DNA of 64,000 nucleotides from IMG/VR virus record IMGVR_UViG_3300021376_000006; one strand, 5' to 3'. Position 1 is the stretch's first letter. Each line of letters opens with the position of its first letter. Positions 27,369 to 63,999 of the stretch are shown here, piece after piece. Below the pieces are notes generated by a model. The model was given only the letters and a program-made list of their open reading frames with translations, ran no database searches and had not been told where the DNA came from. Source of the stretch: a virus (Duplodnaviria > Caudoviricetes). The position numbers and the translations under genes were made by a program.

Positions 27369-27800
27369 ATGACAACTAGAATTCTTATAATGGGATTGCC
27401 CGGAGCAGGCAAAACTACGCTTGCAATAAATTTATTAAACTATTTTAGTCCGGATGTTCTCTGGTTAAATGCAGATGAAATAAGAAAAAAATTTAATGAT
27501 TGGGATTTCAGCTATGAAGGACGAATTCGTCAAAGCCGACGAATGAGAGAAATAGCAGATGTTTCAAACAAAGATTATGTAATTGCAGATTTTGTTTGTC
27601 CCCTAAAAGAAATGCGCGACATTTACGATCCGCACTTTTTGATTTGGGTAGATACAATAGCAGAGGGTAGATTTGAAGATACTAATCGTGTGTTTCTTCC
27701 GCCCGAAACACACGATGTAAGAGTGACCGAGCAAGATGCAGGTCGATGGGCAAGGACAATATATGAACAAATATCACATAAGATTCAATCACCAACATAA
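27369..27800 (+). CDS. cysC: Adenylylsulfate (APS) kinase-like P-loop protein
   Basis: ILIMGLPGAGKTTLA (Walker A), WLNADEIR, DFS.EGR.RQ..RM and DFVCP as in CysC-like kinases; short (143 aa). Confidence 0.65.
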   Translation: MTTRILIMGLPGAGKTTLAINLLNYFSPDVLWLNADEIRKKFNDWDFSYEGRIRQSRRMREIADVSNKDYVIADFVCPLKEMRDIYDPHFLIWVDTIAEGRFEDTNRVFLPPETHDVRVTEQDAGRWARTIYEQISHKIQSPT

Positions 27801-42274: not shown

Positions 42275-42303
42275 ATTATAGCGCAAAATGGATTTATAGT
42301 CAA
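42275..42303 (-). promoter_or_regulatory. sigma70-type early promoter
   Basis: TTGACT, 17 nt, TATAAT; then AAGGAG Shine-Dalgarno and the ATG of the vWA gene. Confidence 0.8.
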
Positions 42304-42617: not shown

Positions 42618-42620
42618 AAT

Positions 42621-42655
42621 AAAAAGGAGGACTTACGGATCAAGATCCTGCCTCC
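42621..42655 (-). terminator. Putative intrinsic terminator after the ATPase gene
   Basis: On the minus strand, GGAGG..GGAT-CTTG-ATCC..CCTCC bulged stem followed by TTTTT. Confidence 0.45.
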
Positions 42656-42673
42656 GCCTCACACGCGACTCAA

Positions 42674-46523: not shown

Positions 46524-46894
46524 ATGTATTCAATCATTAAAACGCTGACTATAAAACCAATTAACAGATAAGTTATGGCATGAATCAGCTGATCAACCCC
46601 AATCCAAAACCAAAAAGCATCTGCATCAGTGGACCATCTCACTGTGAGTCGACGATGTGCCATATCCACGAAGTAATGTACGACAGCATCAAATACAGCC
46701 AGCATGACCGAAGCTTGTAAAGTCAAAAAATGCATCAAGATTACATAACTCAAAGCACCGTGAAGCCCGGCATGTTGTAATCCGCCCAATCGACCAAAGT
46801 GTCCTTTGTCTTTGAGCATTCGATCACTTTGCCAGCAAAAGTCTGCTAAGAAATGTTTAATAAACAACAATGCCAATATCAGCCATGTGATCAT
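46520..46894 (-). CDS. DUF3307-like membrane protein
   Basis: KHFLADF..Q, HAGLHG, HYFVD and DQLIH His/Asp motifs with hydrophobic helices. Confidence 0.7.
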   Translation of the reverse strand: MITWLILALLFIKHFLADFCWQSDRMLKDKGHFGRLGGLQHAGLHGALSYVILMHFLTLQASVMLAVFDAVVHYFVDMAHRRLTVRWSTDADAFWFWIGVDQLIHAITYLLIGFIVSVLMIEYI

Positions 46895-47880
46895 TCGGGA
46901 TACTCTGCACTAAGAAATTCACCAAACGATTGACTTTGTTCGCTTAATCTATTCAATTCATACTTGCCGCAAAACTTAAGAAACTGTGCGCCCACCATTG
47001 GACGATTTTTTTTGACAGCATTAGCGGCAATTGTTTCTGTAATTTTAGCCTTAATTTCATCAGGTTGTGCTGAGAGATCCACTAGCACTCGATTGCGTTC
47101 ATAATCATCTAACACTCGATGTTCCACACCGTTATGGTCTGTCCATCGCTGAAGCATAAGGTTATTCCAAGCATATCCTTTTTTATGTTGGTCAGCAAAA
47201 GCTTCAGTGAGACCAACTTTGTTTTTGGAACCCTTCGTCCTAACACCAGGGTATGCGGAAAAGATATTATCTGTTGGATCTCCCCGCATACACTTCTCAA
47301 ACAGTATCCACGCCGGGTCAGGGATGACTTTGGGTGCTTTGGTCTTTTTATCAAATACCAGTTTACCTTTCTTGTCAAGGATACCGTTCAGCGTGTGGAG
47401 TTCATCGGCAACACCGTTATATTGCTCGACATTCGGCGCAAGTAGTTGGTAGAAATCGGTGTCCGAGGATATAATAACATGATGGTCATTGGGGTGTTGG
47501 TGGATGAATCCTGCAATAAGATCATCTGCTTCAAGTTTGGGATGTTGAAGAACTGTGCAATTAGTCTTTTCTGTGAGGAACGTTTTAAGGTTATCAAACG
47601 CTTCCCAAAATAGTCGGTCCTCTTCCTGCTCGGTTTTGGTAAGGGCTGCACGAGCGACTGCACGATTCTTTTTGTACGGCTCGTAATAATCTTTTCGCCA
47701 TGACCGTCCCTCCAAACAGAATACCACATGATCGGCTTTCTGATCCCGCCAGGCCTTATTAACCGAACCAAGGGTAACATGAATAGCGAATCCTAGCCGA
47801 TCCCAAGTGTCCGACTGACGGTGAGCCGAATGGCGAGCACGAAAGAATGTGTTTGCAGTGTCTACAATTAGGTATCTCAT
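46891..47880 (-). CDS. 5'-3' exonuclease / T4 RNase H-like (FEN family)
   Basis: YLIVDTANTFFR, EADDLIA, SSDTDFYQL, GDPTDNI acidic motifs. Confidence 0.85.
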   Translation of the reverse strand: MRYLIVDTANTFFRARHSAHRQSDTWDRLGFAIHVTLGSVNKAWRDQKADHVVFCLEGRSWRKDYYEPYKKNRAVARAALTKTEQEEDRLFWEAFDNLKTFLTEKTNCTVLQHPKLEADDLIAGFIHQHPNDHHVIISSDTDFYQLLAPNVEQYNGVADELHTLNGILDKKGKLVFDKKTKAPKVIPDPAWILFEKCMRGDPTDNIFSAYPGVRTKGSKNKVGLTEAFADQHKKGYAWNNLMLQRWTDHNGVEHRVLDDYERNRVLVDLSAQPDEIKAKITETIAANAVKKNRPMVGAQFLKFCGKYELNRLSEQSQSFGEFLSAEYPE

Positions 47881-49399: not shown

Positions 49400-49592
49400 A
49401 TCTTAATAACCCTGATTCGTAATAAAGTGCAGTTAAATCTAAATATTCTAACCTATAGGTTACAAAGGAAGGACGCCAAAATCTTGCTGTTTTATCTAGC
49501 CTTACAGTTATTACCCTTTTGTTTATTCGAATAGACCAAACACAAGAAAATCTTGACTTACAATAATAAAAGTTTATATCATTTTTAGTCAT
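49380..49592 (-). CDS. Hypothetical protein
   Basis: 70 aa, TGATG coupling with queE. Confidence 0.4.
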   Translation of the reverse strand: MTKNDINFYYCKSRFSCVWSIRINKRVITVRLDKTARFWRPSFVTYRLEYLDLTALYYESGLLRYERNEN

Positions 49593-50440
49593 CAAGTTCC
49601 CCATTCGTTTTTAAATAACGGTACTTGAAGTCTATCGCTGTATCGTAAACCATGTTTCATTGCTAACAGTGCAACGTTGCGGTTATTTAAAGTATATACA
49701 CTTTCAATACCTCCTACTGGCATAAGATAAATTGATCCTTTAAATCCTGCATTACGATACTGCTCTGTGGCTTTTAAAGCATCTGTGACATCTTCTTCGG
49801 TTGCCACAACAAACTTGAGATAGGTGTAACCAACAGTGGCATAATCGCACACAATGTTGGGTTTGATTGCATCTTCCCATGACTCTCCACTGACAGGTAG
49901 TTTTGCGCTTACACTGAATGTAACTTCTCTATCTCGAGACGCAGCAGTCCATTCGCCTAGATAATGTTTGAACTCTTTGGTTAGCTCTTGAGTACCGTTA
50001 GTTTCAAAAGTAATTTCTTTTAACTTTTGCATACGAGGATGATTCAGCAGATCTTCGTAACTACGCTGCCAACCTAGTAGAGGCTCGCCACCTGTAATAA
50101 CAAGATGTTCGTCCTTCCACTTGCTATGTGGAAGAATTTCCATAATTTGTTCCACAATTGCATCACTGGTTAGCATAGGACTAAGATCTTTGAATCTTGG
50201 ATCCCAGCTTGCATAACTGTCACAGCCTGTACTTACCAAAGGTAAATCATCGTATTTGTTGTAATAATGCACTCTTGCTGCTATATCTTCTACTTCTCTA
50301 CTTAGTTTTCCTCTAGGCATACCGAATCCTGCACATTTAAAGTTGCAACCAAATGTGCGAAGAAAGACACTAGGCACACCCATGTATCTGCCTTCGCCTT
50401 GGATTGAATAAAATAGTTCAGCTACTTTGATTTTACTCAT
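49592..50440 (-). CDS. queE: 7-carboxy-7-deazaguanine synthase (radical SAM)
   Basis: ELFYSIQGEG..G.PSVFLRTFGCNFKC...CDS..SW, VITGGEPL, TFETNGT, DRLQV. Confidence 0.85.
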   Translation of the reverse strand: MSKIKVAELFYSIQGEGRYMGVPSVFLRTFGCNFKCAGFGMPRGKLSREVEDIAARVHYYNKYDDLPLVSTGCDSYASWDPRFKDLSPMLTSDAIVEQIMEILPHSKWKDEHLVITGGEPLLGWQRSYEDLLNHPRMQKLKEITFETNGTQELTKEFKHYLGEWTAASRDREVTFSVSAKLPVSGESWEDAIKPNIVCDYATVGYTYLKFVVATEEDVTDALKATEQYRNAGFKGSIYLMPVGGIESVYTLNNRNVALLAMKHGLRYSDRLQVPLFKNEWGT

Positions 50441-50442
50441 GA

Positions 50443-50967
50443 TTATCCTTGGTAGGTTGCACTGTTAGCACCGTGCTCAAATACTTCTACACTTTTTATA
50501 CGCACAGTTGGATTGATTGGATAACGCAAAGCGTCACCGGCTAACAGTTCACTCATTTTGTCATAGCACATCTTGGCAAACATTTCGCACCCTACACCCG
50601 GAACAATGCGTAGATCACACAATGCACCTCGTTCGTATGGTTTAACTTGTTCTAAACTTCCGGTACCAGACATAGGCATGTTGCCCTGATGACTCATTCG
50701 TACAAAAAAATCTAGGTGAGGATCATCTTCGGCCACAATTAGAGTATGATCAAACATGTAGTCGGCCCATGACTTGAATTCTTTGAGACCTCCAAAGTCC
50801 ATGCACCAGTTTTTATCGTCTAGTGTATCACATTCAAATACCAGCCGAATGCCAATTGAATAACCGTGTAGCGTTGAACAATGGCTGTGTGTGGCACGCC
50901 ATTGTCTAAAGCAACAGCTGAGTCCTCGGTCGTTGCCATAAGTTTTTGTTGAGTAAAATTGTGCCAA
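50443..50967 (-). CDS. queD: 6-carboxy-5,6,7,8-tetrahydropterin synthase (QueD/PTPS)
   Basis: HSHCSTLHGY, MDFG, FDH, VFEH..NSATY; TTG start with AGGAG Shine-Dalgarno; adjacent to queE. Confidence 0.85.
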   Translation of the reverse strand: MAQFYSTKTYGNDRGLSCCFRQWRATHSHCSTLHGYSIGIRLVFECDTLDDKNWCMDFGGLKEFKSWADYMFDHTLIVAEDDPHLDFFVRMSHQGNMPMSGTGSLEQVKPYERGALCDLRIVPGVGCEMFAKMCYDKMSELLAGDALRYPINPTVRIKSVEVFEHGANSATYQG

Positions 50968-50974
50968 TTTAATT

Positions 50975-51061
50975 CTCCTATGTTAAATTTTAGCATAGGC
51001 CTGCAGAATTTGTAAAGCGGGATGAAGAGCCAGGAAGGCCGCTGTGTAAAGTTTTATTTAT
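50975..51061 (-). promoter_or_regulatory. queD leader: late promoter, internal sigma70 promoter and an RBS-sequestering hairpin
   Basis: ATAAATA (51055-61); stem AGCGG/CCGCT (51043-39 and 51020-16); TTTACA (51016-11), 18 nt, extended -10 TGcTAAAAT (50992-87); stem CCTATG/CATAGG (50999-94 and 50982-77) covering AGGAG. Confidence 0.6.
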
Positions 51062-51233
51062 TAATGTATATGCAGTTAGCTGAAACTCTGTATCTATCTG
51101 ATTTCCAGGCTTGACGAACATAATCTCTTGTCTTTTCGCATTCTTCAAAATTTTGAGTTGGAAAACTTATAGAACCTCGAGATGATGGCACATTTGGATT
51201 AATTGCATGCAACATAATTATTAGAGTCCACAT
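51054..51233 (-). CDS. Small hypothetical protein, 59 aa
   Basis: ATG at 51233 lies 5 nt after a perfect TATAAATA; two Cys; hydrophobic N-terminus. Confidence 0.5.
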   Translation of the reverse strand: MWTLIIMLHAINPNVPSSRGSISFPTQNFEECEKTRDYVRQAWKSDRYRVSANCIYINK

Positions 51234-51238
51234 AAAAA

Positions 51239-51246
51239 TATTTATA
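51239..51246 (-). promoter_or_regulatory. T4 late promoter consensus TATAAATA
   Basis: Exact match, intergenic. Confidence 0.65.
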
Positions 51247-51273
51247 CTACAGTTTCCCAGGCATGTCTTTCCA

Positions 51274-51558
51274 TTACAGTTTGAATATTGTTGGCAGTAA
51301 CATACTGGCAGTACTAGCATCATCCCCGTGAAAGTGAAGTCTAGTACCGCCTGTGCCATTTTGGTGATGATGACAACGTTTTGCCTTGCCGTAACTAACA
51401 TATTTCACAATTTGTTCTCGACCACGACTGTCCCAAAATTTAGATTCAATTACAGTGCCGTCAATCATCTTGTACCACTCTATCATATCATCAGTGAGTT
51501 CGTCTACATCAATCCAGACCGCATACGTTACTGTGCAACCTGGTGGTAAAGCTATCAT
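51274..51558 (-). CDS. Hypothetical protein, possibly frameshifted near its 3' end
   Basis: ATGA coupling with the PRTase gene; 8-nt direct repeat near the end (see findings). Confidence 0.5.
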   Translation of the reverse strand: MIALPPGCTVTYAVWIDVDELTDDMIEWYKMIDGTVIESKFWDSRGREQIVKYVSYGKAKRCHHHQNGTGGTRLHFHGDDASTASMLLPTIFKL

Positions 51559-52103
51559 TGAGCCCACCACGTTTCCCAAGGAAAAACAACCCAACAAGGA
51601 TCATCGAGTTTGTTTATGTTGCGACCGCTATAGCTAATACCTTCGTAGCTGCTGGCTTCATTGTTTACAACAACTGCGAATCTTACATTACGGTTCCAGA
51701 TTGCCGACCATGCAGGATGATTGGGCAAGCAACTGCTCTGCCAATCTTGTCTAATCCATTCTAGTGTAGCACCTGAGTCATTGATGTCATCCACTATCAA
51801 TATTTTTTTTCGATAAGCAGGATCAGTGTCTGCATCACCTGAACCACGTTCGTCTTTGGGCACATAACCAAATGCCTGTTCGGCCATCCATAAATTACTT
51901 TCAGATTCCCCACCGTCACGCAAGCTCACTTTAAGTGTTTCACAAGGAACACCAAAGTAATGACTGATCATTACAGCAGGTTGCAATCCGCCCCGAGTTA
52001 TACCAACTACATAATCTGGACGCCAATTACTATTTGCAATATCTCTGCACAGTTTGTTGACCAAACCTTTGAATTCAGAATCTGAAATAATTAGTTGTTT
52101 CAT
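51555..52103 (-). CDS. Type I phosphoribosyltransferase (purine/xanthine-guanine PRT-like)
   Basis: YVVGITRGGL, ILIVDDINDSGAT (PRPP loop), WVVFPWE. Confidence 0.85.
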   Translation of the reverse strand: MKQLIISDSEFKGLVNKLCRDIANSNWRPDYVVGITRGGLQPAVMISHYFGVPCETLKVSLRDGGESESNLWMAEQAFGYVPKDERGSGDADTDPAYRKKILIVDDINDSGATLEWIRQDWQSSCLPNHPAWSAIWNRNVRFAVVVNNEASSYEGISYSGRNINKLDDPCWVVFPWETWWAQ

Positions 52104-52291
52104 CAGTCTCTTTCCATAAGTGAAGCTTCTTTGATAAGTGCTACCAATTCATCCAAGGTGTTACACAAAATTTTTGCATTGGCCCAATCGCCATCTTCGG
52201 TGCGACCACCAGCTTCAAACATGAAACCGTTGTCATACATGCTGTCAGTAAAGCTGTCGTTGATTTTGTTTAATTTGTCTTCGATTTTCAT
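52103..52291 (-). CDS. Hypothetical protein
   Basis: 62 aa, coupled on both sides. Confidence 0.55.
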   Translation of the reverse strand: MKIEDKLNKINDSFTDSMYDNGFMFEAGGRTEDGDWANAKILCNTLDELVALIKEASLMERD

Positions 52292-52515
52292 TTTAATCCT
52301 TTCTTGAGTTTATCTTCTTTCATGCCTTGTGCTATCATTTTTTTAAAAATTAATACCACTCTATTTTTCTCCTTTTCAGAGAGAAACTTTACCAACATCA
52401 ACTTGTCTTCGTAACTTTTTGCGTTGTCAAGAAATTCTTCAGGTACTGTAATTTTTGGTTTTTTTGGTTTGAATTTCTTGAGTTCAGCTTTGACATCTTT
52501 TTCTTCATCAGACAT
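52288..52515 (-). CDS. Hypothetical Lys/Glu-rich protein
   Basis: 75 aa, AAGGAG Shine-Dalgarno, TTAAATA in a hairpin loop upstream (52529-52545). Confidence 0.55.
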   Translation of the reverse strand: MSDEEKDVKAELKKFKPKKPKITVPEEFLDNAKSYEDKLMLVKFLSEKEKNRVVLIFKKMIAQGMKEDKLKKGLK

Positions 52516-52542
52516 GACGGGCTCCTTTTAGCGTATTTAACG

Positions 52543-53238
52543 CTATCTGGGAGCAAATTCTTGTTGTAGTTTAACGTTGTCAAAAAATTCTTTTTTGGTT
52601 GCAGCATCGTCTTTGAATGCGCCTCTCAACACTGTTGTTTGGGTAAGACTGCTATGTGCCATAATGCCTCTATTCTCGCAGCAACCGTGCGTGGCTTGTA
52701 TATAAACTGCCACATCCTTACTTCCAGTTGCAAACTCAATTTCTCTGGCGATATCCATACATAGTTCTTCTTGAAGTGTGCCGCGCCGCGCACACCATTG
52801 TGCAATTCGCGTGTACTTCGAGAGACCAATGAGTTTGGGTCCAGCAATAATACCAATATAAGCAACACCCGACACAGGTTGATGATGATGGCTACAAACA
52901 CTTTTAAGTTCGCTTCGAACTACAAGCATTCCGTCGTATGCCCCATCAGTGTCATTTGGAAATGCAGTTGCGTTGGGTGTAGGATCATATCTACCTGCCA
53001 TCAATTCATAGTAATACATTTTGGCAAGACGTCTTGCTGTGCCTTTACTGTTGGGATCAGTTGCTCGGTCAATCAACAATGTATCTAGCACTTGTTCAAA
53101 AGCCTCTGTGGCTTCGTCAATCAACTGATCTCGATCTTCGTCATTCACATAACTGCTTATGTTGTCACCGGCCCAATATCTCTTGCCGTCTGCCTGCATC
53201 TGTTCTCTAATACGATCACTTACTCTTGTATATTTCAT
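52543..53238 (-). CDS. folE: GTP cyclohydrolase I
   Basis: GTARRLAKMY, SVCSHHHQP, GLSKY.RI, LQEEL, HGCCENRG, FKDD. Confidence 0.92.
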   Translation of the reverse strand: MKYTRVSDRIREQMQADGKRYWAGDNISSYVNDEDRDQLIDEATEAFEQVLDTLLIDRATDPNSKGTARRLAKMYYYELMAGRYDPTPNATAFPNDTDGAYDGMLVVRSELKSVCSHHHQPVSGVAYIGIIAGPKLIGLSKYTRIAQWCARRGTLQEELCMDIAREIEFATGSKDVAVYIQATHGCCENRGIMAHSSLTQTTVLRGAFKDDAATKKEFFDNVKLQQEFAPR

Positions 53239-53850
53239 TTAATCTCCAATAATTGCGATATCTCTTAGATCTGGATATTCGTGATATTTAGGTTGTTCAT
53301 TCAGTGTTAGAAGTTTTTCTAAACCGATCCTTGCATCTTCGATAGTGGGGCGATAATGATAACCAACCTTGAAAACACGCTGTTCCTGCCACGGCAAGAA
53401 ATTGAGATTTCTTCCGTCATAGCGTTGTTGTAATAGTATATCATATGCCTCGTAATCGTCTAACAGTATAGCACCACCGTGGCCTATCTGTAAAGGTTTA
53501 TTATGACCAAAACTCAAACACTGCATCATACCAGGCCGATACATGCCGTCTTCCAATCTTCTAGCACTATCCCAAATGTCTGTTCCGTAAAATCTATACT
53601 CACCTGTCCATTTTTCTGGAACTAATTTGTATTCTATTCCTAACTTGTGCATGATCATTGGGATTGATAGATAGGTGTATGCGGTAAACTTGACTCGTTG
53701 AACCTTATTGTAGCGCAAACATAACTCAATCGCATGTGTACAGCAATCAGTCATTATGGCATAAGGTGCACCAGTTTTCTTTGCTAATAATTTTTCAAAT
53801 TGCGCTATTTCTTCAAAGGCCACGTGTGTACCATTTATAAGCTGAATCAA
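53239..53850 (-). CDS. Short DegT-like PLP-dependent enzyme
   Basis: TDCCTHAIEL, WDSAR, CLSFGHNKPL..G.GGAIL; only about 200 aa. Start uncertain. Confidence 0.65.
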   Translation of the reverse strand: MIQLINGTHVAFEEIAQFEKLLAKKTGAPYAIMTDCCTHAIELCLRYNKVQRVKFTAYTYLSIPMIMHKLGIEYKLVPEKWTGEYRFYGTDIWDSARRLEDGMYRPGMMQCLSFGHNKPLQIGHGGAILLDDYEAYDILLQQRYDGRNLNFLPWQEQRVFKVGYHYRPTIEDARIGLEKLLTLNEQPKYHEYPDLRDIAIIGD

Positions 53851-54778
53851 CGATTTGGTTGATAGTTGAATAGTTAGGACGCCAGTTCAGTACTGATTGT
53901 GCTAGGCCAGCATCTGCAACTAGTTGATCCGGATCTCCGGGCCTACGTTCGCCTACGTGTAATTTTAACGGTCCATATTTTAATGTAATATAATCTACAA
54001 TTTCTTGATTGCTTATTCCGCTATTGGTTCCCAAATTAAACACTGCAAATTGCTGATCAGTGTTCCAATGTATAGCTCTATGATGTGCATCAGCTAAATC
54101 CCATACATGAATGTAATCTCTAATACAGGTTCGATCTGGTGTTGCAAAGTCTACACCGTTTAGAGTGAAAAATTCATCACGAATTTTAGATTCTAATAAT
54201 CTAGCAATGATGTGTCCTGCGCCCGGTGCTTGACCTAGGTCGTGATTGTAAGGTTCGGCACCGGCGGCGTTAAAGTATCTAAAACAAACACCAGGTAATC
54301 CGTATGCTTGGTTATAATTTTGAAGCACTACTTCAATAATATCTTTAGTGTGGCCGTATGGACTAATAGGTTTTATCCTGTCAGTTTCAACCAGTGGAAC
54401 ATGATCAGGGTTGCCGTACACACTAGCACTAGAACTAAAAAGAATAATCGGTTTCTTTTTATAATCCTTAACATGATTTAAAAATGTAATTGTCTTTGCT
54501 ACATTGTTATCATAATATTTTGCCGGATCTTCAACACTTTCTCTAACAGAGATATCCCCGGCACAATGTACAATGACATCGGGTTGTAATTCGTCTAACC
54601 ATAATAAACTTTGTTTAGATACATAGTCAGTATGTAAAAATCCATCAACATTTTTTAATGTGTGATCTCTACGCTCACTATCAATAACATACACACTTGA
54701 ATTTTTGTTGTGTTGTTTTAAATAGCGAGAAATGTGACTACCAATGTAGCCACATCCGCCTGTAATGACAATTTTCAT
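53813..54778 (-). CDS. galE: UDP-glucose 4-epimerase-like
   Basis: ITGGCGYIGSH, FSSSASVYG, PYGHTK, FRYFNAAGA, IRDYIHVWDLADAH, RRPGDP. Confidence 0.85.
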   Translation of the reverse strand: MKIVITGGCGYIGSHISRYLKQHNKNSSVYVIDSERRDHTLKNVDGFLHTDYVSKQSLLWLDELQPDVIVHCAGDISVRESVEDPAKYYDNNVAKTITFLNHVKDYKKKPIILFSSSASVYGNPDHVPLVETDRIKPISPYGHTKDIIEVVLQNYNQAYGLPGVCFRYFNAAGAEPYNHDLGQAPGAGHIIARLLESKIRDEFFTLNGVDFATPDRTCIRDYIHVWDLADAHHRAIHWNTDQQFAVFNLGTNSGISNQEIVDYITLKYGPLKLHVGERRPGDPDQLVADAGLAQSVLNWRPNYSTINQIVDSAYKWYTRGL

Positions 54779-55971
54779 TAGTACTTGCTTTCGTGTGTGT
54801 GTTTACGATAGTCTGTACTCATTCGCAACCAGGATTCTCCGTTGCCTTGGAGAATATCGCAGATCCTATCAATAGTCGAGTCGTTCCACGCACTAAACTT
54901 GCCCATGTTGTTGTGCGGATGTTGTAAGAGGGGTACAAGTTTTTGTATTGCATCTCTAATCGACCACGGGACATAAAGTCTCTCGCTATCATTTGCAAAA
55001 GCTTCGGGGAAACTTCTGTAGGCGGGGTATAAAATATTAGCCCCAAGAGCGTCAGCTTCACTTGCTGTGTTCGAAACCCAATCCTGTAGAGCACAATTAA
55101 ACAATACTCGCGTATCCGTGAGTAATTCATAGTAATCATTCTTTTCAAGATCTTCATACACAGTCAGTTTGCCTTCGGCCTGCAGTCTACGTGTACGTTC
55201 CATGTAACTGCTATTGTTACTACGCAACTTGCTGCCGCTGAATACACAGAATTCTACCCGGGGCCAATCGTTATATGGCAATGTCTGCAGTCTATGATAT
55301 TCTTCGATTAGATCCATGTAGAAGTCTGGCTGCTTCTCTTGATCCCACCTAGCAGCAAAACCTACACGGTAAGCTCTATCTTCGAATCTTTTTAGATCTC
55401 CGGGTACACGACTGCGTACTTCGTCTTTACCAAACGCCAGTCCACTGATATTATACAGCCTACCCTGCCAGCCTGCAACCTTCATGTGCATGACCATTTC
55501 TTCATTAGTGGCAAGAATTATATCGGCAAACGAGTCGACCATCTTTTCATAGTGTCCCATCCATTCTTGCATACCCCATACATGAACAAAATCATCGGGG
55601 TCAATAGTTTGTGCAAGACAGCGAACGGCAATGCGAGGACGGCTACCAGCGTCCACTTGATCCAAAATGTAAGGTAGGCTTTCGATGCCGGGTTGAAACA
55701 TGTCCTCAAAGTATACAACATCTTCATTAGTAACTGCTCCTGCTTTCATTAGACGAATAAGATTCATAAGTTGGCTCATGCCAAAATATGTACGACCATG
55801 TGCATCAAGGACTTGACCAGTAACAATAGCTTGGTCATTGCTTAGTGTGTCGCCGGGCACAATTTCATAGTCGATGCCGCGGCGTTCAAACACTGCACGA
55901 TTCCATTCTTGTAATTGTAATGTATAACGTGCCTTATAAGGCTCTAGGCCCATGTACCATAATTTACGCAT
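54778..55971 (-). CDS. GT-B (GT4-like) glycosyltransferase
   Basis: GFAARWDQEKQPDF, FNCALQDWVSNTASEADALG..LYP..RSFPE; adjacent to galE. Confidence 0.65.
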   Translation of the reverse strand: MRKLWYMGLEPYKARYTLQLQEWNRAVFERRGIDYEIVPGDTLSNDQAIVTGQVLDAHGRTYFGMSQLMNLIRLMKAGAVTNEDVVYFEDMFQPGIESLPYILDQVDAGSRPRIAVRCLAQTIDPDDFVHVWGMQEWMGHYEKMVDSFADIILATNEEMVMHMKVAGWQGRLYNISGLAFGKDEVRSRVPGDLKRFEDRAYRVGFAARWDQEKQPDFYMDLIEEYHRLQTLPYNDWPRVEFCVFSGSKLRSNNSSYMERTRRLQAEGKLTVYEDLEKNDYYELLTDTRVLFNCALQDWVSNTASEADALGANILYPAYRSFPEAFANDSERLYVPWSIRDAIQKLVPLLQHPHNNMGKFSAWNDSTIDRICDILQGNGESWLRMSTDYRKHTHESKY

Positions 55972-56393
55972 TATTTTTCTCCTGTATCTGTAGCGACCTT
56001 GATATTTAGACCGCGTAGTGCGCTGTCAGGAATTTGTACTCTCGTTGACTTTTGAGCTATCACACTGTTCCAATATTCTTGTGCTCGATAGCCACCTTGT
56101 GTGAAATTCTTTTCAGGGTAAGAAAGTTGATTTTTCAATGATTGTACTTGATCATCAAGTCTTTTGATCCATCTCCAATGATCTTTTATGTCTTCTTGCA
56201 TTCTACGCAATGGCCCTTGAGCTCGAACATCTGCTTCATTATCTCCGCTATCAGTCAATATCACCATCATCATGAGTTGACGTAGTGCATTCTTTACTCT
56301 AGGATCATCGCTGGTCATTGCTCGATCAAACATTTCCGTCAAACGTTCTAGATCGAAGTTGGCTGCGTCTTTTTCTCTCATTGCTCCACTCAT
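55971..56393 (-). CDS. Hypothetical protein
   Basis: 140 aa, coupled. Confidence 0.55.
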   Translation of the reverse strand: MSGAMREKDAANFDLERLTEMFDRAMTSDDPRVKNALRQLMMMVILTDSGDNEADVRAQGPLRRMQEDIKDHWRWIKRLDDQVQSLKNQLSYPEKNFTQGGYRAQEYWNSVIAQKSTRVQIPDSALRGLNIKVATDTGEK

Positions 56394-56611
56394 TGTACAC
56401 GATCCTTTTTAGCGTACCAATTCATCTTGGGCCATTTTCCACGTTGGGCACGATCAAACTCACCCCAGGGAGTTTTTTCATTGTATAGGTGTCTTTCATC
56501 ATACGGATATCCGTATGTGACACAAAATTCACGATATTTTTCAAGGTCGTCAAAAATTTGACTGACTTCAGGTTTCATAGTCAGGTATTTCTTGAGCCAT
56601 TTAGCGGCCAT
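56390..56611 (-). CDS. Hypothetical protein
   Basis: 73 aa, AAGGAG Shine-Dalgarno. Confidence 0.6.
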   Translation of the reverse strand: MAAKWLKKYLTMKPEVSQIFDDLEKYREFCVTYGYPYDERHLYNEKTPWGEFDRAQRGKWPKMNWYAKKDRVQ

Positions 56612-56621
56612 GTTTATCTCC

Positions 56622-57071
56622 TTAGATTTTTATTGAAAGAGAAGGTTGATGAGTTGCATAAGTTATGGAGCAGCCGTTTTCGTTGTCTTCGCTTACACTG
56701 ATTGTAACATTGCGTTCGGGATACCTGTTAGCGATTTGAACATATAAATCATCTGCAATCATTTCACAACTTTTGTGATCTAATTGCAATACAGCTTGGT
56801 CGCCCGAATACAATTGTTCGATCCAGCGTTTGAACTGGATGAATTCGATGTCTCTGTCATTGTGAAATACATCAATACTAATCCTAAAATGAAATATATG
56901 GCGATGAGGATGGCCAAGGAACGAAACGTCATATTTGTCTCCGGTTGCGAGTAGTGGATCGGTCAGTGCTGCTGGATATTGATGGATACCTTCTCGAGAA
57001 AAAGTAACCCAAATCTGTCTTTGAGCGTGGTGTAAAATTCTATCAACTGTTTCTCTTTGTGATTGGATCAT
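56622..57071 (-). CDS. Second QueD-like T-fold protein (DpdL-like candidate CDG decarboxylase)
   Basis: FLGHPHRHIFHF His cluster, HNDRDIEF, SCEMIA, VSEDNENG..ITY. Confidence 0.6.
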   Translation of the reverse strand: MIQSQRETVDRILHHAQRQIWVTFSREGIHQYPAALTDPLLATGDKYDVSFLGHPHRHIFHFRISIDVFHNDRDIEFIQFKRWIEQLYSGDQAVLQLDHKSCEMIADDLYVQIANRYPERNVTISVSEDNENGCSITYATHQPSLSIKI

Positions 57072-57664
57072 AATAAATTCAAGTTGTCAAAAGTTATTGT
57101 TTTAGTATAAATTCCAAATTGCAAATAGTCAATCAATTTGATTATCAAATCTGCGATTTGTGCGGTACTTTGTAATAGTTTATCTTTAGGTAATATACCG
57201 TTCAATGAATGTATAAAATTGGTGTCTAATAGAGCCGGATTAATTTCAATTATTTTTAATTGAGAATCAATTTGACGATGTATATCTATCATGTTTTTTT
57301 GTTTTCTTTTTTCTTCTATGTACTTTTTTTCTTTGGGATTGAAGTTTACGTAAAATGATTCAGGTTTGTCTACCAAGAAACTTCCTATGTGAATTATCAA
57401 TTTGTTTGGATCATATCGCCATACTTTTAAAATATATTTAAGAAGCATGGTTTGCCCAAACGCATCGTATGCGTTGTTAATAAAAACATCTGCCGATCGA
57501 CTTAATTGTAATATTTTTGCTATGGTACTAAGTTTACTAATGTCGTACCCATCAATGATATCATATCCTACAACTTGATTTTGACCAAAATTCTTATAAT
57601 ATTGTAGTCTGAGACAAAGAGCTTGCCCTAAGCCAGATTTATGGCCAGTTATAACCAATTTCAT
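57068..57664 (-). CDS. Short-chain dehydrogenase/reductase
   Basis: VITGHKSGLG, DVFINNA, YIEEK (YxxxK). AT-rich. Confidence 0.7.
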   Translation of the reverse strand: MKLVITGHKSGLGQALCLRLQYYKNFGQNQVVGYDIIDGYDISKLSTIAKILQLSRSADVFINNAYDAFGQTMLLKYILKVWRYDPNKLIIHIGSFLVDKPESFYVNFNPKEKKYIEEKRKQKNMIDIHRQIDSQLKIIEINPALLDTNFIHSLNGILPKDKLLQSTAQIADLIIKLIDYLQFGIYTKTITFDNLNLL

Positions 57665-58194
57665 TTAATTACTTCGTCTTTGGTATACTGTGACCAATCA
57701 GTAAATACACCGTCTCTACGCATCAGGCTGTGTACACTATGGCACCACACCCCAGGATTAGAATGTGCAAAATTAGTATCATCGATTTTTATTGTTGCAT
57801 TATATCCAAGCTGTTGTATATAGGGCAATTTAACCGATATCATTGGAATAAACTTTTGATATTCAACAAGAGTAGATTCTAGCAATCCTTCTACTTCTCT
57901 CACATCTATATCCAAAGTACACCAATAACCACGTCCTATAAAAGGCATGATCATATTTTCCCATCGTGTCCAATCTTGACTTGTAGCGCGACCTGTTGGA
58001 AAACTTTGGTTAGCACCAAAATATATGTGTTCAATTTTTTTGTTTACTTGGGTGAAAGGATCATTTAGTATCTGTTCAATGTCTTCAGTAGATTTCACTC
58101 CTGCTACAAAAAGAGTTTTCAAGCCATATGCTGGACTATGTTCTACTTCAGTGCCTAAAAACATAGTAACATCATTGTGTCCAGGTCTGTCCAT
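57661..58194 (-). CDS. Hypothetical protein in the deazaguanine locus
   Basis: 177 aa; HIYFGANQSF and WCTLD motifs; no family recognised. Confidence 0.6.
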   Translation of the reverse strand: MDRPGHNDVTMFLGTEVEHSPAYGLKTLFVAGVKSTEDIEQILNDPFTQVNKKIEHIYFGANQSFPTGRATSQDWTRWENMIMPFIGRGYWCTLDIDVREVEGLLESTLVEYQKFIPMISVKLPYIQQLGYNATIKIDDTNFAHSNPGVWCHSVHSLMRRDGVFTDWSQYTKDEVIK

Positions 58195-58406
58195 TATTCA
58201 TCACCATATCCTGTTCGTTGAGTATCTTCTTCCCACTGCAACTTGCTTAGTTTGCTGATTTCGTCTTTAATCAACAACTTTTTCTTTTTCAATTCAGCTA
58301 AATGCTCCACATCAACACCAGGATGATTTGTTTGCATTTCTGTTATTTGTTTGTCGAGTAATTTATGCATTTCTTCTAAATGATTGATTCTACTTTTATA
58401 GCTCAT
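58194..58406 (-). CDS. DUF465/YdcH-like small coiled-coil protein
   Basis: RINHLEEMHKLLDKQI...LKKKKLLIKDEI. Confidence 0.65.
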   Translation of the reverse strand: MSYKSRINHLEEMHKLLDKQITEMQTNHPGVDVEHLAELKKKKLLIKDEISKLSKLQWEEDTQRTGYGDE

Positions 58407-58407
58407 A

Positions 58408-59952
58408 TTATTCCTCCAAATGAGTTTGCATAATTGTTTCTGCTTCGTCCTCAGACATTTCGTCTTCAACTTCTTCTACTGTTTCAAAAAGTGCATTAAA
58501 CATGGTATGACTGTTCTTTGTTTTTTTGCCTTTGAATCCTCTTGTGCCAACGATGTCCATCCAATAACTATCGTAGCGTTCAACAATTGCTTCGGCACTT
58601 GCACGATCAGGTGCAGAGAAAACAGCTTCAACAATGTCTCTGAATCTAGCATGGTCACCATTGACATTCCACAGCATGCTAGGTCGTTCTCCTGCATCAT
58701 ACGCTCTATTCGCTCGCTGAACTGATTCAATATGCATCCAAACATTGTGCCCCATCATTAATGCGTAACTAAAACTATCCCAACTGGTTCGACCTTCCTT
58801 GCCATTTTTATTCAGGTCACCGGGTTGATATATACAAACATCTTTAATTAGCAAATGTTTACTTATTGGACTGTCCTCAAATTGTTCAAAGATACCATCT
58901 TGTAATACCGCATCTCGAAACAGTCTAGTGTCTGTGGCGTATTTCTTGTCATCGGCACTGGGCTTCATTTTGTACGACCATTTACTATCGTGTTCAAGAC
59001 TAATGGCATGATACATCTGTCCATTGGCAGTAGCAAGAAACGGACTGGCGCAATCAAAACTGATTGTAAATGCTGGATTGACATACTTACGAACGGCTCG
59101 TTGAATGTCAGTTAGTAACAACGCCCATTCTAGTTTACTTGTTCCTAGAAAGTGCATCCAATCATGTACACCTTCTTGCAGTAGATTATCATATCTCAAT
59201 GCAACTAATCTTTTAAGAACAAGATGAATATCACACATGTTCTGACCGCCCATAGCCCAGCCATCAAAATGTGTATCTGGATATATGGTAGGATCGCAGA
59301 ACTGTTTCATTTCTTGATACCATTCTTCTGCCGAAGTATGATTGTCACCTTGAAGAACGTTTAGGAACTTAGCACCACCGTTGTTCTTTCCTTGACGGTG
59401 TTGCATAAAGTAATTGTTGTTAAACTTGGTAGCATCAACTGCTTCTTGGAGAGTAGTAATGCCGCAGGCCTTGCTTGCTTTCTTGTCATGGATAACCCAA
59501 GTTGGAATATCAAGAATCATACCATAGTCAGCAATACCGTCTAGCCATTTTAACACAGCCGAACGTTTCTTTTCAGCTTTTGAACACCCGCTATTGGCTT
59601 TCCAATCACCTTCCCACAAGCCCTTGGCAATCTGAAATCCGCCGGAGTCACCTAACATAAAGGTTCCAGGTTCTCTCTTGCGAACCATGTCTTCACTGGC
59701 ATCCTCTTTAGTAAGATCTAGGTTTGCGTGTCCTCCGGAGTAGAGATTCCATCTGTAGGGGAACAGGGCTTGTTGGCTGTTCAGCCAATTGAATTGCTCC
59801 ATGTCCTGTAATGCCTGTGGCATACGAGCAGGATCAACATAGTCATTGTTAACACGTTGTTTTCCTATAAAAGTTGCATAGAATCCAGATATAGCAGGCA
59901 AGAACACTGCATAATCTGATTGCTTTGCTGTTAAATTATCTTGGTTCGTCAT
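58408..59952 (-). CDS. dpdA: TGT-superfamily guanine transglycosylase, probable DNA 7-deazaguanine inserting enzyme (DpdA-type)
   Basis: GDSGGFQ (TGT signature), MILDIP, LNVLQG, GWAMGG, HFLG, SFDCASP, HNVW; located with folE, queD and queE. Confidence 0.75.
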   Translation of the reverse strand: MTNQDNLTAKQSDYAVFLPAISGFYATFIGKQRVNNDYVDPARMPQALQDMEQFNWLNSQQALFPYRWNLYSGGHANLDLTKEDASEDMVRKREPGTFMLGDSGGFQIAKGLWEGDWKANSGCSKAEKKRSAVLKWLDGIADYGMILDIPTWVIHDKKASKACGITTLQEAVDATKFNNNYFMQHRQGKNNGGAKFLNVLQGDNHTSAEEWYQEMKQFCDPTIYPDTHFDGWAMGGQNMCDIHLVLKRLVALRYDNLLQEGVHDWMHFLGTSKLEWALLLTDIQRAVRKYVNPAFTISFDCASPFLATANGQMYHAISLEHDSKWSYKMKPSADDKKYATDTRLFRDAVLQDGIFEQFEDSPISKHLLIKDVCIYQPGDLNKNGKEGRTSWDSFSYALMMGHNVWMHIESVQRANRAYDAGERPSMLWNVNGDHARFRDIVEAVFSAPDRASAEAIVERYDSYWMDIVGTRGFKGKKTKNSHTMFNALFETVEEVEDEMSEDEAETIMQTHLEE

Positions 59953-60559
59953 AAAAATCAAGGTTACTTATAAATTTGTAGTCGTTGTGATATGTAATAA
60001 TAATTTTAGATTTTAATTTAGGATCGTTGTCGATACGTGATTTGATAAATTTTATAACCTGGGCGTTATCGTAATTTGATTCTGATCTGTTATCTTCAAT
60101 GTTATCAAGTGTATTTAGATCATAGCCCAAGTAATGATTTATTTGTTGCTTTAAATTTTTGTTAAATCTAAAATATACTGGATCGTAATTCAAAATTTGT
60201 TGTATATATTTTAACTGAAAGTCAGTATGATCATCAAACACGATTTGATCAAAGATTATTCTTTCGGCTAAATGGTTGTAATCAGAAACAAAGTGATCAC
60301 TGCCATAGCCTGATCCTAGCAGGCGTAAAGAAGCGTAAGTACCAAATCCACTCAGCCATCTTTCTACAGGATCTCTTATTACCACCAAGCAATTTTTAAT
60401 AGCAATTGGTTGATCAATGATATTCCAGTGTGACCAAGAATTGTATTTCAACAAATTAGTTAAATAGGTGCTTGCATTTTTTGGAATATTGAGATAAAAT
60501 ATTTCCCGGTCAGGGGACAACATACCTCCGCCGGGAACATATCCTGTGTCTTTGATCAC
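59936..60559 (-). CDS. Sulfotransferase-like protein
   Basis: FYLNIPKNAST (5'-PSB loop) and VVIRDPVERWLSG (3'-PB motif). AT-rich. Confidence 0.65.
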   Translation of the reverse strand: MIKDTGYVPGGGMLSPDREIFYLNIPKNASTYLTNLLKYNSWSHWNIIDQPIAIKNCLVVIRDPVERWLSGFGTYASLRLLGSGYGSDHFVSDYNHLAERIIFDQIVFDDHTDFQLKYIQQILNYDPVYFRFNKNLKQQINHYLGYDLNTLDNIEDNRSESNYDNAQVIKFIKSRIDNDPKLKSKIIITYHNDYKFISNLDFYDEPR

Positions 60560-61282
60560 TTATTTTTGTTGAGCTGGTAGAATATAGTTGTATTCAGCAA
60601 TGCCACTGTCGACAGTGATCATGGCTGCACCTTCGTCACTGAACTTGATAGTTTTGTCGCCTGACAAAGATAGGATACTAATTACGGCACTCACTGGCCA
60701 AGACCATGCTTTGGTCAACGATCCTTGAACACTGTGTTGAAACACAAAGTTACCACTGTGGCTGCTGTGATCACCAAAGTAGAAAACCAAGTTGCTGTTA
60801 TCGACCTTGGCAATAAATGTTGTTTCTTCGCTGTTGGCTTGAGCCTGGAACTTCATGCGTTGAATAGCTGCCACAGTGGGTTCAATATCCACTCCCCACT
60901 TGACACCTTTAAATTTTACAGTCTTTAATTTGTCATTGACAATAGCTGCAAGCATAAAACGATAATCGTTTTTGAAATCACCCGCATTGTTTTCAAAATG
61001 TACTCCATTTGGAATTCCATCATCTTTTTTCGTGATTGTTAATTTCGCATCATCTCTATACTCAGGGATATTCAATATAGTGTTTAGTTTGGCCAAGTTA
61101 GGCATACCAAATGTGCCAATGAATTCAGGAACTGGATTATGAAATTGTGCCTGCACAATTACTGTGCGTTCTTCGCTGACTGCTTCGATAATGGTCTGGC
61201 CATCTGACCCTGTAATTTTAACCAGATCAATAATGCCTAAACTGTGAGTATGTTGTACGATATCTTGTAAATAATCTTTCAT
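60560..61282 (-). CDS. Putative DNA polymerase sliding clamp / processivity factor
   Basis: 240 aa with a two-domain alpha/beta pattern ending YILPAQ; near polB; own promoter. The call rests mostly on size and context. Confidence 0.5.
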   Translation of the reverse strand: MKDYLQDIVQHTHSLGIIDLVKITGSDGQTIIEAVSEERTVIVQAQFHNPVPEFIGTFGMPNLAKLNTILNIPEYRDDAKLTITKKDDGIPNGVHFENNAGDFKNDYRFMLAAIVNDKLKTVKFKGVKWGVDIEPTVAAIQRMKFQAQANSEETTFIAKVDNSNLVFYFGDHSSHSGNFVFQHSVQGSLTKAWSWPVSAVISILSLSGDKTIKFSDEGAAMITVDSGIAEYNYILPAQQK

Positions 61283-62295: not shown

Positions 62296-63999
62296 TTATT
62301 CAAAGGTAAACAAGGTATCAAATGTTGTTTTGATATCAGTATAATTAGGTATATCCCATTCTAGTACTCCCAAGAGATTTTCTACCTTTTGATCCACAAT
62401 TGTGGCTTCCATAAGATTATCGTCAAATGGCAATTCTTTAAACCAAGCAGGAATATGACTTTCATCTGTGGGATAACCTACACTGGTGTATCCTAACGCA
62501 TTGTCTTTTAATTTGCAAACAATAGTTTTCATACCATCCACAATAGCCATGCTGTAATTGTCCCCGTGCATGCGCCGTAAGTTGTTCCAGTTAAGAGCAG
62601 CACGAACATGACCCGGCATATTGGCACGACCAAGTCGCTCTTCTTCTCGACCGTACTTGGTTAGATTATTGACACGTTTAGGTGTACCTTTTTCCCAAGC
62701 AGGTCTATCTTGGAACGCAATTTTGAATTCTCGTACACGGTCGTAGATTTCTTCCTTGTCTGCTCCAGTTAGTACCGCAGTCAACAGTTCACTCAAGAAG
62801 TCTTGTACAACCTTGGGAGTATCTGATCGTTTAAGATCAAGACCCATTGCTTTTACTTTACCGGGCTTGCCATGTGTGTCTAGTCTGTGCCCTTCTAGGT
62901 CATAGATAAGAACAGCATAGCGTTTTTTCTTTATGAATAGTCCCTTACTAGCGACAAGTTCTCGCCCCCCTCGTATTAGCTCACCCATTGGTCTTGGTAC
63001 ATGACAGGCCCTTTCCATAAAAGCCGGGAAGGAATCATTGACTTGATCTGCGATATTATCGTAAAGTTGGGCACAGATGTCTCGGTTCCATTCCATCCGA
63101 CCTGATTCAACTTCTTCTCTAACTGCAGGCCATGCTGTAAAATAGCATGAATCAGTGTCACCGTAGATGATGGATTTGCCCACATGGTTATATTCTCCGA
63201 ATATGCACTCATTGATATACGCATCCATGTGCCGCGCGATAATCCTTCCAGTGAGAGTAGTACTTTGACCAATTCTTTTATCGAAAAATCTACAACCTGG
63301 ATTGAGGATCGCTCCGTAGAGACTGTTAAGGTTAATTTTCTTGACAAGTTGTCGCTTGTCCCAGAACGCTTGGTCTTCTTTCGTATTAGCTTCTTTTTTC
63401 TTGGCTTGTAATTCCTTGCGTTCTGCATACCACCTCTCTAATAGTCCAGGCACAACTGCTTTTTGTTCATAACTGAATATAGTACCATTTGCACTTAGCA
63501 TCCATGGACGATTACTATCAAATATAAGTCTCCATATATCAGCTGCACTCATTATATCTGAACCGCCGGCTTCCCAATCAATGGTAATTTCTGTGCCAAC
63601 TTCTCCATTCATTACTGCGGTATACTCAAGACTGCCAAACATGTTTTCCCATGCATCTGCAAAACTACTGCCACCGGCCATTTTTTCTTGAATATACCTG
63701 TCGGTCATTATTGGCCGCAGCTGACCGACGATCGACTCTTGTGCCATGTTAAGAGCGCGGATTGCTGACGGGTAGAGACTGTTGATGTCGATTGCTCCGA
63801 TCCAGTCGTGCATGCCTTTTTTGGGGAAAGCAACATAGGCACCTGCTGCTTGCGTATCTCCTTGGTCATCTCTTCCTTTCCTATCAGGTACAACCATACC
63901 TCGTTGATGTGCTTCGTTGATAATTGCCTGCTCAGTCACTGCCACAGCACCCATGGTAGTTTGTAACAGCACGGTGTTATCATGTGCAAGTTCATTGGC
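62296..63999 (-). CDS. Family B DNA polymerase (C-terminal polymerase domain; 5' end outside the window)
   Basis: DINSLYPS (region II), KINLNSLYG (III), YGDTDS (I), KKKRYA; frame open to the window edge. Confidence 0.95.
   Translation of the reverse strand, partial: ANELAHDNTVLLQTTMGAVAVTEQAIINEAHQRGMVVPDRKGRDDQGDTQAAGAYVAFPKKGMHDWIGAIDINSLYPSAIRALNMAQESIVGQLRPIMTDRYIQEKMAGGSSFADAWENMFGSLEYTAVMNGEVGTEITIDWEAGGSDIMSAADIWRLIFDSNRPWMLSANGTIFSYEQKAVVPGLLERWYAERKELQAKKKEANTKEDQAFWDKRQLVKKINLNSLYGAILNPGCRFFDKRIGQSTTLTGRIIARHMDAYINECIFGEYNHVGKSIIYGDTDSCYFTAWPAVREEVESGRMEWNRDICAQLYDNIADQVNDSFPAFMERACHVPRPMGELIRGGRELVASKGLFIKKKRYAVLIYDLEGHRLDTHGKPGKVKAMGLDLKRSDTPKVVQDFLSELLTAVLTGADKEEIYDRVREFKIAFQDRPAWEKGTPKRVNNLTKYGREEERLGRANMPGHVRAALNWNNLRRMHGDNYSMAIVDGMKTIVCKLKDNALGYTSVGYPTDESHIPAWFKELPFDDNLMEATIVDQKVENLLGVLEWDIPNYTDIKTTFDTLFTFE

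Follow-up and report, generated by a model that had tools for sequence, protein, structure and literature searches.

In the Cellulophaga phage phiST, guanine in the DNA is replaced by deoxy-7-deazaguanine (dDG) through a system that operates without QueC (Cui et al. 2023, NAR 51:9214). The phiST module encodes FolE, a QueD with the motif CxxxHGY, QueE, the QueD-like protein DpdL, and a transglycosylase related to tRNA-guanine transglycosylase (TGT), i.e., DpdA3, of 259 residues; MazG and a P-loop ATPase are also part of it. In the same study DpdL was recognized as QueD-like with an HHpred probability of 99.9%, and its signature was defined as a change of the QueD motif CxxxHGH to LxxxHRHxF. 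Here we describe a new member of this published phiST/ACP17 type of locus, found in a 64-kb stretch of DNA (the window) from an uncultured giant phage of the Caudoviricetes (IMG/VR record IMGVR_UViG_3300021376_000006) that belongs to an abundant jumbo-phage lineage. As in phiST, FolE, QueD, QueE, a DpdL homologue and a TGT-related transglycosylase are present and QueC is absent; in contrast, the phiST module has no GT4-like glycosyltransferase, GalE, DegT-like protein or purine-type phosphoribosyltransferase (PRTase), all of which are encoded in the window locus. The new element is the conserved glycosyltransferase, GalE and PRTase content of the module.

The modules of the Acidovorax phage ACP17 and the Synechococcus phage BUCT-ZZ01 also include FolE, QueD, QueE and DpdL, lack QueC, and have, beside DpdL, a glycosyltransferase from the family to which the window protein belongs. 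In addition, BUCT-ZZ01 shares the PRTase with the window, and ACP17 a homologue of a 177-residue protein (g177). On the other hand, the transglycosylase of both phages belongs to the DpdA2 group of phages nt-1 and VH7D, to which the window enzyme is related at the profile level only, and neither GalE nor the short DegT-like gene is present in their modules. No report on the DNA base of ACP17 or BUCT-ZZ01 was found in the literature searched.

Another related locus is that of the Pseudomonas jumbo phage PA5oct (Wroclawvirus; EST35_0314-0325), whose transglycosylase belongs to the same clade as the window enzyme (35% identity, with 80% of the protein aligned). The gene order is also the same, i.e., polymerase, 240-residue protein, DpdA-like enzyme, glycosyltransferase, DpdL, QueE and RNase H; nevertheless, the PRTase-like gene of PA5oct is found between those for DpdL and QueE and that of the window after FolE, GalE and DegT-like genes are missing from the PA5oct locus, FolE and QueD are not adjacent, and the identities are low (22% for the glycosyltransferase and 35% for the DpdA-like protein). 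The DNA of PA5oct resists cleavage at a number of restriction sites that contain G, and nucleases recognizing modified G target this phage (PMC12191111); no publication on the chemical identity of this modified G was found in the literature searched. Further parallels exist in small-molecule pathways of actinomycetes. The tubercidin (Tub) pathway also lacks QueC, starts from 7-carboxy-7-deazaguanine (CDG), and combines a purine-type PRTase with a decarboxylation, while in huimycin (Hui) type pathways a GT4-family enzyme glycosylates a 7-deazapurine base (bioRxiv 10.64898/2026.04.15.718813). However, these pathways have no transglycosylase and no DNA target, and the Tub decarboxylase is of the UbiD type and not a T-fold protein.

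In the window, the genes encoding FolE, QueD, QueE, the DpdL homologue and a 513-residue protein with a DSGGFQ motif are all located on the minus strand between 49592 and 59952 (Table 1); these genes had been noted in a previous sequence-only reading, and family searches and translations corroborated them. This strand carries nearly all the genes from approx. 28.7 to 64 kb. The module abuts a family-B DNA polymerase gene (62296-63972), which is followed in the direction of transcription by genes encoding a methyltransferase, a 240-residue protein, a 207-residue protein, the 513-residue protein and a DUF465 protein. Next are the genes for proteins of 177 and 198 residues, the DpdL homologue, proteins of 73 and 140 residues, a 397-residue glycosyltransferase, GalE (an epimerase of the SDR type) and a DegT-like protein of 203 residues, and then those for FolE, the PRTase, QueD and QueE; a 5'-3' exonuclease/RNase H (46891-47880) is encoded further on.

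Table 1. Features of the 7-deazaguanine locus and of a possibly linked gene; coordinates are those of the window.
Feature	Coordinates	Strand	Basis
QueE-like radical SAM enzyme (CDG synthase)	49592..50440	-	phrog_2076 E 3.6e-52
QueD (CPH4 synthase), CxxxHGY variant	50443..50967	-	PF01242 E 2.3e-15; phrog_2389 E 1.8e-36
Purine-type PRTase	51555..52103	-	PF00156 E 7.5e-12
FolE (GTP cyclohydrolase I)	52543..53238	-	PF01227 E 5.2e-38
Short DegT-like protein, 203 aa	53239..53850	-	Partial PF01041 match, E 1.2e-12
GalE (UDP-glucose 4-epimerase)	53813..54778	-	TIGR01179 equivalog, 280.2 bits vs cut-off 262.3
Predicted GT-B/GT4-like glycosyltransferase, 397 aa	54778..55971	-	Structure model; homology to ACP17, PA5oct and BUCT-ZZ01 genes
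140-aa protein, weak DUF29 similarity, variable module member	55971..56393	-	PF01724 E 0.0014, below cut-off; found in roughly half of the related contigs
g73, conserved, 73 aa, between DpdL and glycosyltransferase	56390..56611	-	Present in 20/20 related contigs
DpdL homologue (proposed CDG decarboxylase)	56622..57071	-	LGHPHRHIF motif; phrog_17812 E 5e-35
g198, 198 aa, variable module member	57068..57664	-	No Pfam, PHROG or NCBIfam match; found in 2/20 related contigs
g177, 177 aa, conserved beside DpdA	57661..58194	-	Present in 20/20 related contigs
Small DUF465 protein	58194..58406	-	PF04325 E 2.2e-11; same gene after DpdA in contig L083
Predicted DpdA-like DNA/guanine transglycosylase (TGT superfamily), 513 aa	58408..59952	-	LGDSGGFQ motif; TGT-fold model
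207-aa protein, weak sulfotransferase similarity, variable	59936..60559	-	PF03567 E 2.4e-4, below cut-off; overlaps DpdA start
240-aa conserved upstream neighbour of DpdA	60560..61282	-	37% identity to PA5oct EST35_0314 (annotated virion structural protein)
P-loop kinase-like protein (APS-kinase/AAA_33-like), 143 aa, possibly linked	27369..27800	+	PF01583 E 8.4e-8

FolE, QueD and QueE would convert GTP into CDG. The C-x3-H-G-Y motif is common to the QueD proteins of the window, phiST and ACP17; QueE matches the NCBIfam QueE models below their cut-offs and is 45% identical to QueE from BUCT-ZZ01. In agreement with the sequence-only reading, which had noted that queC and queF were missing, no Pfam match to QueC, QueF or ArcS was obtained in the open reading frames (ORFs) of the window, of which nearly all those of approx. 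90 residues or more were covered. Likewise, none of five related IMG/VR contigs of 112-225 kb contains a QueC above cut-off; a single sub-threshold match in a related contig was dismissed, given that it reached 14 bits and covered only model positions 4-67. QueC is also absent from the complete genomes of PA5oct, ACP17, phiST, Phosso and BUCT-ZZ01, all of which carry a DpdL homologue, in a search for which phage 9g (191 bits) was the positive control. The genomic context of DpdL, i.e., the presence of FolE, QueD, QueE and DpdA and the absence of QueC, is the one observed in the 64 kb of the window, and also in the five related contigs and in the five complete carrier genomes.

Residues 52-60 of the DpdL homologue read LGHPHRHIF and fit the LxxxHRHxF signature, which the sequence-only reading had given for DpdL and which is exactly the one defined by Cui et al. 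2023. In a 12-member alignment of DpdL proteins, L52, H56, H58 and F60 are invariant, together with three more clusters of His, Glu and Cys residues, and the window protein keeps all the family-invariant His, Glu and Cys residues. It is 35% identical to CGPG_00067 from phiST (BLASTP E 1e-19), 53% to DpdL from ACP17 (E 6e-34) and 54% to the PA5oct homologue; the identities to the ACP17, PA5oct and Phosso homologues range from 53 to 65%, and that to the BUCT-ZZ01 homologue is 38%. The protein had also been described as a second T-fold protein, and here the direct link with QueD is weak: there is no Pfam match, with PF01242 absent at E <= 0.01, and hhalign aligned the DpdL and QueD families with a probability of 58% (E 1e-4) over 42 C-terminal columns only. 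A T-fold is predicted from the homology of the protein to phiST DpdL, which was analysed by Cui et al. 2023. In the Vibrio phage Bakedbeans (L104, 4251-5402), the DpdL-like region is the C-terminal end of a 383-residue ORF that may encode a fusion protein.

The 513-residue protein, for which the ATG at 59952 was taken as the start in agreement with an identical database protein, has no match in Pfam, PHROGs or NCBIfam, and searches of the PDB sequences with the single protein or with a 47-sequence profile returned nothing. The AlphaFold model, built on 47 diverse homologues, has a pLDDT of 90.5, and its top 50 Foldseek matches in the PDB are all TGT enzymes (E ~2e-7, probability 1.00). A VIA-wide structural search recovered QTRT2 (Z 16.7), ArcTGT (16.7), TGT (16.2), the DNA preQ0 insertase DpdA 7ui4 (15.0, 303 residues) and Cap10 (13.5), whereas generic TIM barrels scored 11.2 or less; these values do not separate DpdA (15.0) from TGT (16.2-16.7). 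As judged from the model, the protein is a TGT-type (beta/alpha)8 barrel. A profile comparison with E. coli Tgt is consistent with this assignment (hhalign probability 90%, E 1.6e-6) and pairs GDSGGFQ, with D101, and SFDCASP, with D299, with tdsggfq and mfdcvmp of Tgt, respectively; both catalytic Asp residues are invariant in 47 family members. The CxCxxC zinc motif of the canonical tRNA enzyme is missing from the protein, and no conserved Cys cluster was found in the family consensus, which argues against a canonical tRNA TGT but not against a DpdA-like enzyme. The designation "TGT-like" in the sequence-only reading held with regard to the fold and the motifs, with the difference that the protein is recognized only by fold and profile-profile comparison, and not by sequence families.

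Among the described phage enzymes, the 513-residue protein appears nearest to those of the DpdA2 type, as judged from profile comparisons only. With the ACP17 enzyme, which groups with DpdA2 of nt-1 and VH7D, hhalign gave a probability of 96% (E 1.4e-9, 180 columns). No DpdA2 phage was found by tblastn with the window protein, and BLASTP against phiST DpdA3 (CGPG_00065) detected nothing; the hhalign match to DpdA3 is weak (probability 72%, E 3.5e-5, 116 columns, with lengths of 513 versus 259 residues). Similarity to the DpdA1 type was not found (hhalign probability of 0.5% with gp03 from 9g). Two other scans of phage records were made; a six-frame search with PF01702 recovered no TGT even in 9g and is uninformative on phage DpdA proteins, and tblastn with E. 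coli Tgt recovered no DpdA, all its matches being true tgt genes or probable contaminants. By tblastn, the full-length relatives of the window protein are restricted to Pseudomonas jumbo phages of the PA5oct type (35%), Vibrio phage 2.275.O and the Sinorhizobium phage Phosso. The family as a whole forms 924 clusters when grouped at 50% identity, and its close relatives, in contigs of up to ~356 kb, number more than 7,400. In one relative with 46% identity (ENA contig, sample ERZ24794644, locus qBr2cLEt), QueC is encoded two genes downstream, which ties the clade to deazaguanine pathways and to different ones among them. The strongest indication at hand that DNA is the substrate of this clade is the G-modified DNA of PA5oct, and it is from this carrier of a 35%-identical homologue that we infer an exchange of guanine in DNA by the 513-residue protein. 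Together, the homology of the DpdL protein to those of phiST, ACP17 and PA5oct, the TGT fold, the two catalytic Asp motifs and the absence of QueC bear out the earlier proposal of a QueC-independent, DpdL-type 7-deazaguanine locus.

The other conspicuous component of the module is the 397-residue protein, which has no match in Pfam (glycosyltransferase models included), NCBIfam or PHROGs. Its model, of medium quality (pLDDT 76), is similar to ten GT4-type enzymes (VIA Z 20.1-22.1, 314-348 aligned residues; Foldseek E 1.6e-10), and according to it the protein has a GT-B fold of two Rossmann domains. Homologous genes are found between DpdA and DpdL in ACP17 (ASD50404, E 1e-17) and in PA5oct (EST35_0317, E 5e-12), and the protein is 62% identical to UTS52032 from BUCT-ZZ01. 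Only eight phage records were matched with the window protein as the query, and all of them carry DpdL with this gene beside it; with the ACP17 homologue, 23 records were matched, of which 18 carry DpdL and the remaining five correspond to the Xanthomonas/Erwinia PhiXhv group, where the glycosyltransferase is two genes from Gat-QueC (checked on PhiXhv-15). Hence, all 8 and all 23 records place the glycosyltransferase beside deazaguanine genes; the carriers include ACP17, PA5oct, BUCT-ZZ01, Phosso and the Xanthomonas phages BUDD, X1 and PhiXhv. In PhiXhv-15 (L096, 3747-6981), the genes for Gat-QueC (QueC domain, 170 bits), for a deacetylase similar to LmbE/BshB and for a glycosyltransferase of this family are consecutive, so that a deazaguanine cluster of the QueC type includes sugar-handling genes as well.

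The same association is seen in metagenomic DNA. In a contig whose transglycosylase is 42% identical to that of the window (L099), DpdL, DpdA, the glycosyltransferase, FolE, the PRTase and QueE form an unbroken run, and the order DpdA, g177, DpdL, g73, glycosyltransferase, GalE, short DegT-like protein and FolE is kept in 20 related contigs whose DpdA identity to the window goes as low as 76%, although in a few of them single genes were not detected. More than 7,000 close relatives of the glycosyltransferase are present in public data. The short DegT-like protein belongs to virus-only clusters of proteins of 200-215 residues and is found with 53-89% identity in 18 of the 20 contigs; because of this conservation in relatives it is not regarded as a pseudogene. 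The main text of Cui et al. 2023 does not mention glycosyltransferases, sugars or phosphoribosyltransferases.

These observations bear on the identity of the final base, which the sequence-only reading had proposed to be dDG or its carboxylated counterpart, dCDG. This proposal is plausible but not secure, considering that the glycosyltransferase, GalE, the DegT-like protein and the PRTase are conserved in the module and that the phiST group, which has dDG, is devoid of the glycosyltransferase. Possibly, the final base could be a further-modified derivative, such as a glycosylated one, rather than plain dDG. With modest confidence, we consider that the locus as a whole is best explained as a phage DNA-modification module in which guanine is replaced by a QueC-independent 7-deazaguanine and the mature base is probably glycosylated. 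According to this proposal, CDG would be processed by the DpdL homologue, for which the published suggestion is a decarboxylation to 7-deazaguanine, and the 513-residue enzyme, a member of a divergent DpdA clade typical of PA5oct-like jumbo phages, would swap guanine in the phage DNA for the deazapurine after replication. The PRTase would most simply recycle the released guanine to GMP and then to GTP, which would feed the pathway. The conserved glycosyltransferase and GalE suggest the addition of a hexose; the former would probably act on deazaguanine, either as the free base or in DNA, with UDP-galactose from the adjacent GalE as the donor. If so, the mature base would be a glycosylated 7-deazaguanine and not plain dDG. 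In huimycin-type compounds the sugar is attached to the 2-amino group, and such an acceptor would be present in 7-deazaguanine, CDG and the products of Gat-QueC alike. It can be tentatively suggested, with more doubt than confidence, that the GT4-like family is a dedicated 7-deazaguanine glycosyltransferase and that its carriers hold glycosylated 7-deazaguanine in their DNA, with GalE and perhaps the short DegT-like protein tailoring the sugar donor in the window lineage.

Several points weigh against a glycosylated base, or against parts of the pathway leading to it. Mass spectrometry has proven dDG only in the phiST group (phiST, phi19:2 and phi13:1), and there the base is plain dDG. By tblastn with both queries, the glycosyltransferase is absent from six DpdL lineages, i.e., the phiST group, MA9V-3, RHph_I1_18, Ahp1, Bakedbeans and D479. 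The GT-B/GT4 fold predicted by the model does not reveal the acceptor, and plain 7-deazaguanine offers no evident O-acceptor to which a sugar could be attached. The window also contains other sugar genes and a block of radical SAM, carbamoyltransferase and GDSL genes, so that the sugar genes need not serve DNA; moreover, it represents 64 kb of a genome of ~350 kb. Concerning the earlier steps, the decarboxylation of CDG by DpdL is a proposal even for the founding members from phiST and ACP17, and dpdL together with dpdA from either phage gave no dDG in E. coli, from which it was suggested that other, unknown enzymes may be needed (Cui et al. 2023). A dedicated deazaguanine glycosyltransferase, if real, would explain this result in the case of ACP17.

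Several of these points would fit an alternative that we regard as somewhat improbable, in which the base is plain dDG as in phiST and the glycosyltransferase, GalE and the DegT-like protein serve elsewhere (e.g., in virion or host glycans) while sharing the same early-gene block. FolE, QueD, QueE, DpdL and DpdA, with no QueC, are what phiST, phi19:2 and phi13:1 possess, and dDG replaces all dG in these phages; in addition, a full-length DegT protein, an epimerase and a methyltransferase encoded at 31824-34518 show that the window has sugar genes unrelated to the locus. However, in the phage collection the glycosyltransferase family occurs only beside deazaguanine genes, it is inside the compact run of L099, and the phages of the phiST group have no such glycosyltransferase.

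The PRTase and its neighbours raise a different possibility, namely a pre-replicative route at the nucleotide level similar to that of tubercidin. In this route, the PRTase would join CDG to phosphoribosyl pyrophosphate (PRPP), DpdL would decarboxylate the nucleotide, kinases and a reductase would yield 7-deaza-dGTP, and the family-B polymerase would incorporate it; the DpdA-like enzyme would then be auxiliary, e.g., in patching leftover G. The QueC-less tubercidin pathway provides the model, with the CDG-specific purine PRTase TubE acting before the decarboxylation of the nucleotide (PMC6112128). The purine PRTase is co-conserved in the modules of the window, BUCT-ZZ01, PA5oct and L099, the module adjoins the polymerase gene, and that of phiST contains MazG and a P-loop ATPase. 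Also in favour, a P-loop kinase-like gene lies directly after QueE in the compact module of L099, and its product is 43% identical (E 3e-37) to the kinase-like protein encoded in the window. We nevertheless consider this route unlikely: all such phages retain an enzyme of the TGT fold whose catalytic motifs are intact, no PRTase was detected for the module of ACP17, Cui et al. 2023 argue for a post-replicative insertion, and the window yielded no enzyme that would deplete dGTP. Furthermore, the best NCBIfam match of the PRTase, albeit weak and below cut-off, is to xanthine PRT (E 3.7e-8), and a similarity to xanthine/guanine PRTases fits a simple salvage of guanine.

Finally, it is highly improbable that the locus is not involved in DNA modification, with the TGT-like enzyme acting on tRNA, or with a pteridine glycoside being made as an auxiliary metabolite by FolE, the T-fold proteins and the glycosyltransferase. 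In favour of such a role, the DpdA-like model has tRNA enzymes as its closest structural neighbours, the glycosyltransferase fold search also lists a cyanobacterial UDP-glucose:tetrahydrobiopterin glucosyltransferase (Z 19.9), and the glycosyltransferase is 62% identical to that of a cyanophage. Against it, QueE commits the pathway to deazapurines, the homologous module of PA5oct goes together with G-specific restriction resistance of the virion DNA, no tRNA genes were found in the window, and the structural Z-scores fail to tell DpdA from TGT.

With respect to the remaining proteins of the module, g177 is homologous to ASD50402 from ACP17 (E 2.5e-14), whose gene is located just upstream of the ACP17 dpdA; an Atlas search with g177 gave no informative match. 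The idea that g177 and g198 represent a split homologue of a 353-residue protein from PA5oct was tested and rejected; the homologue of that protein is the 397-residue glycosyltransferase. The 207-residue sulfotransferase-like protein shows 30-64% identity to proteins of some relatives, is absent in others, and is probably not core to the module. A homologue of the 240-residue protein is encoded upstream of the DpdA-like gene in contigs L088, L089 and L099. The Rfam and tRNA scans of the locus gave no matches and thus revealed no known preQ1 riboswitch. Among relatives, an intein splits the polymerase gene located upstream of DpdA in L089 (3955-8154) and in the ENA contig with P0127 (ERZ24794644, qBr2cLEt), and that of PA5oct is interrupted by a homing endonuclease (L001, 2605-7831); TnpB/Cas12f-like genes are found near the module in two metagenomic relatives.

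Other gene blocks are present in the window. On the plus strand, at 14558-21951, four neighbouring radical SAM proteins (460, 488, 404 and 429 residues) are interleaved with proteins of 451 and 241 residues, and three of the four have a SPASM domain N-terminal to the radical SAM core. Also on this strand, the region 23889-28338 encodes two DUF6071/GDSL-like proteins, a carbamoyltransferase (25167-26648), the P-loop APS-kinase-like protein and a weak cytidylyltransferase-like ORF; it has the appearance of a block for the tailoring of glycans or small molecules. The second sugar set, on the minus strand, comprises the full-length DegT aminotransferase (E 9e-79), the NAD epimerase/dehydratase and the small methyltransferase mentioned above; the genes for ThyA (35815-36729), a GDSL lipase and dihydrofolate reductase (DHFR, 37442-37942) come next. 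At 41001-43777, also on the minus strand, a DUF2201 metallopeptidase/VWA protein adjoins a MoxR-like AAA ATPase.

The locus mainly extends a published pathway to a very abundant lineage of uncultured jumbo phages with genomes of ~350 kb. The presence of the glycosyltransferase and the PRTase in the modules of several cultured phages provides a testable lead to a new DNA base, and the content of the module could identify the missing partner that blocked the reconstitution of the DpdL step. The identity of the modified G of PA5oct has practical weight, given that the therapeutic use of this phage is under study and that END nucleases sense it. If the proposal presented here is true, glycosylated 7-deazaguanine would be a sugar-bearing purine analogue in DNA, of a kind not yet described.

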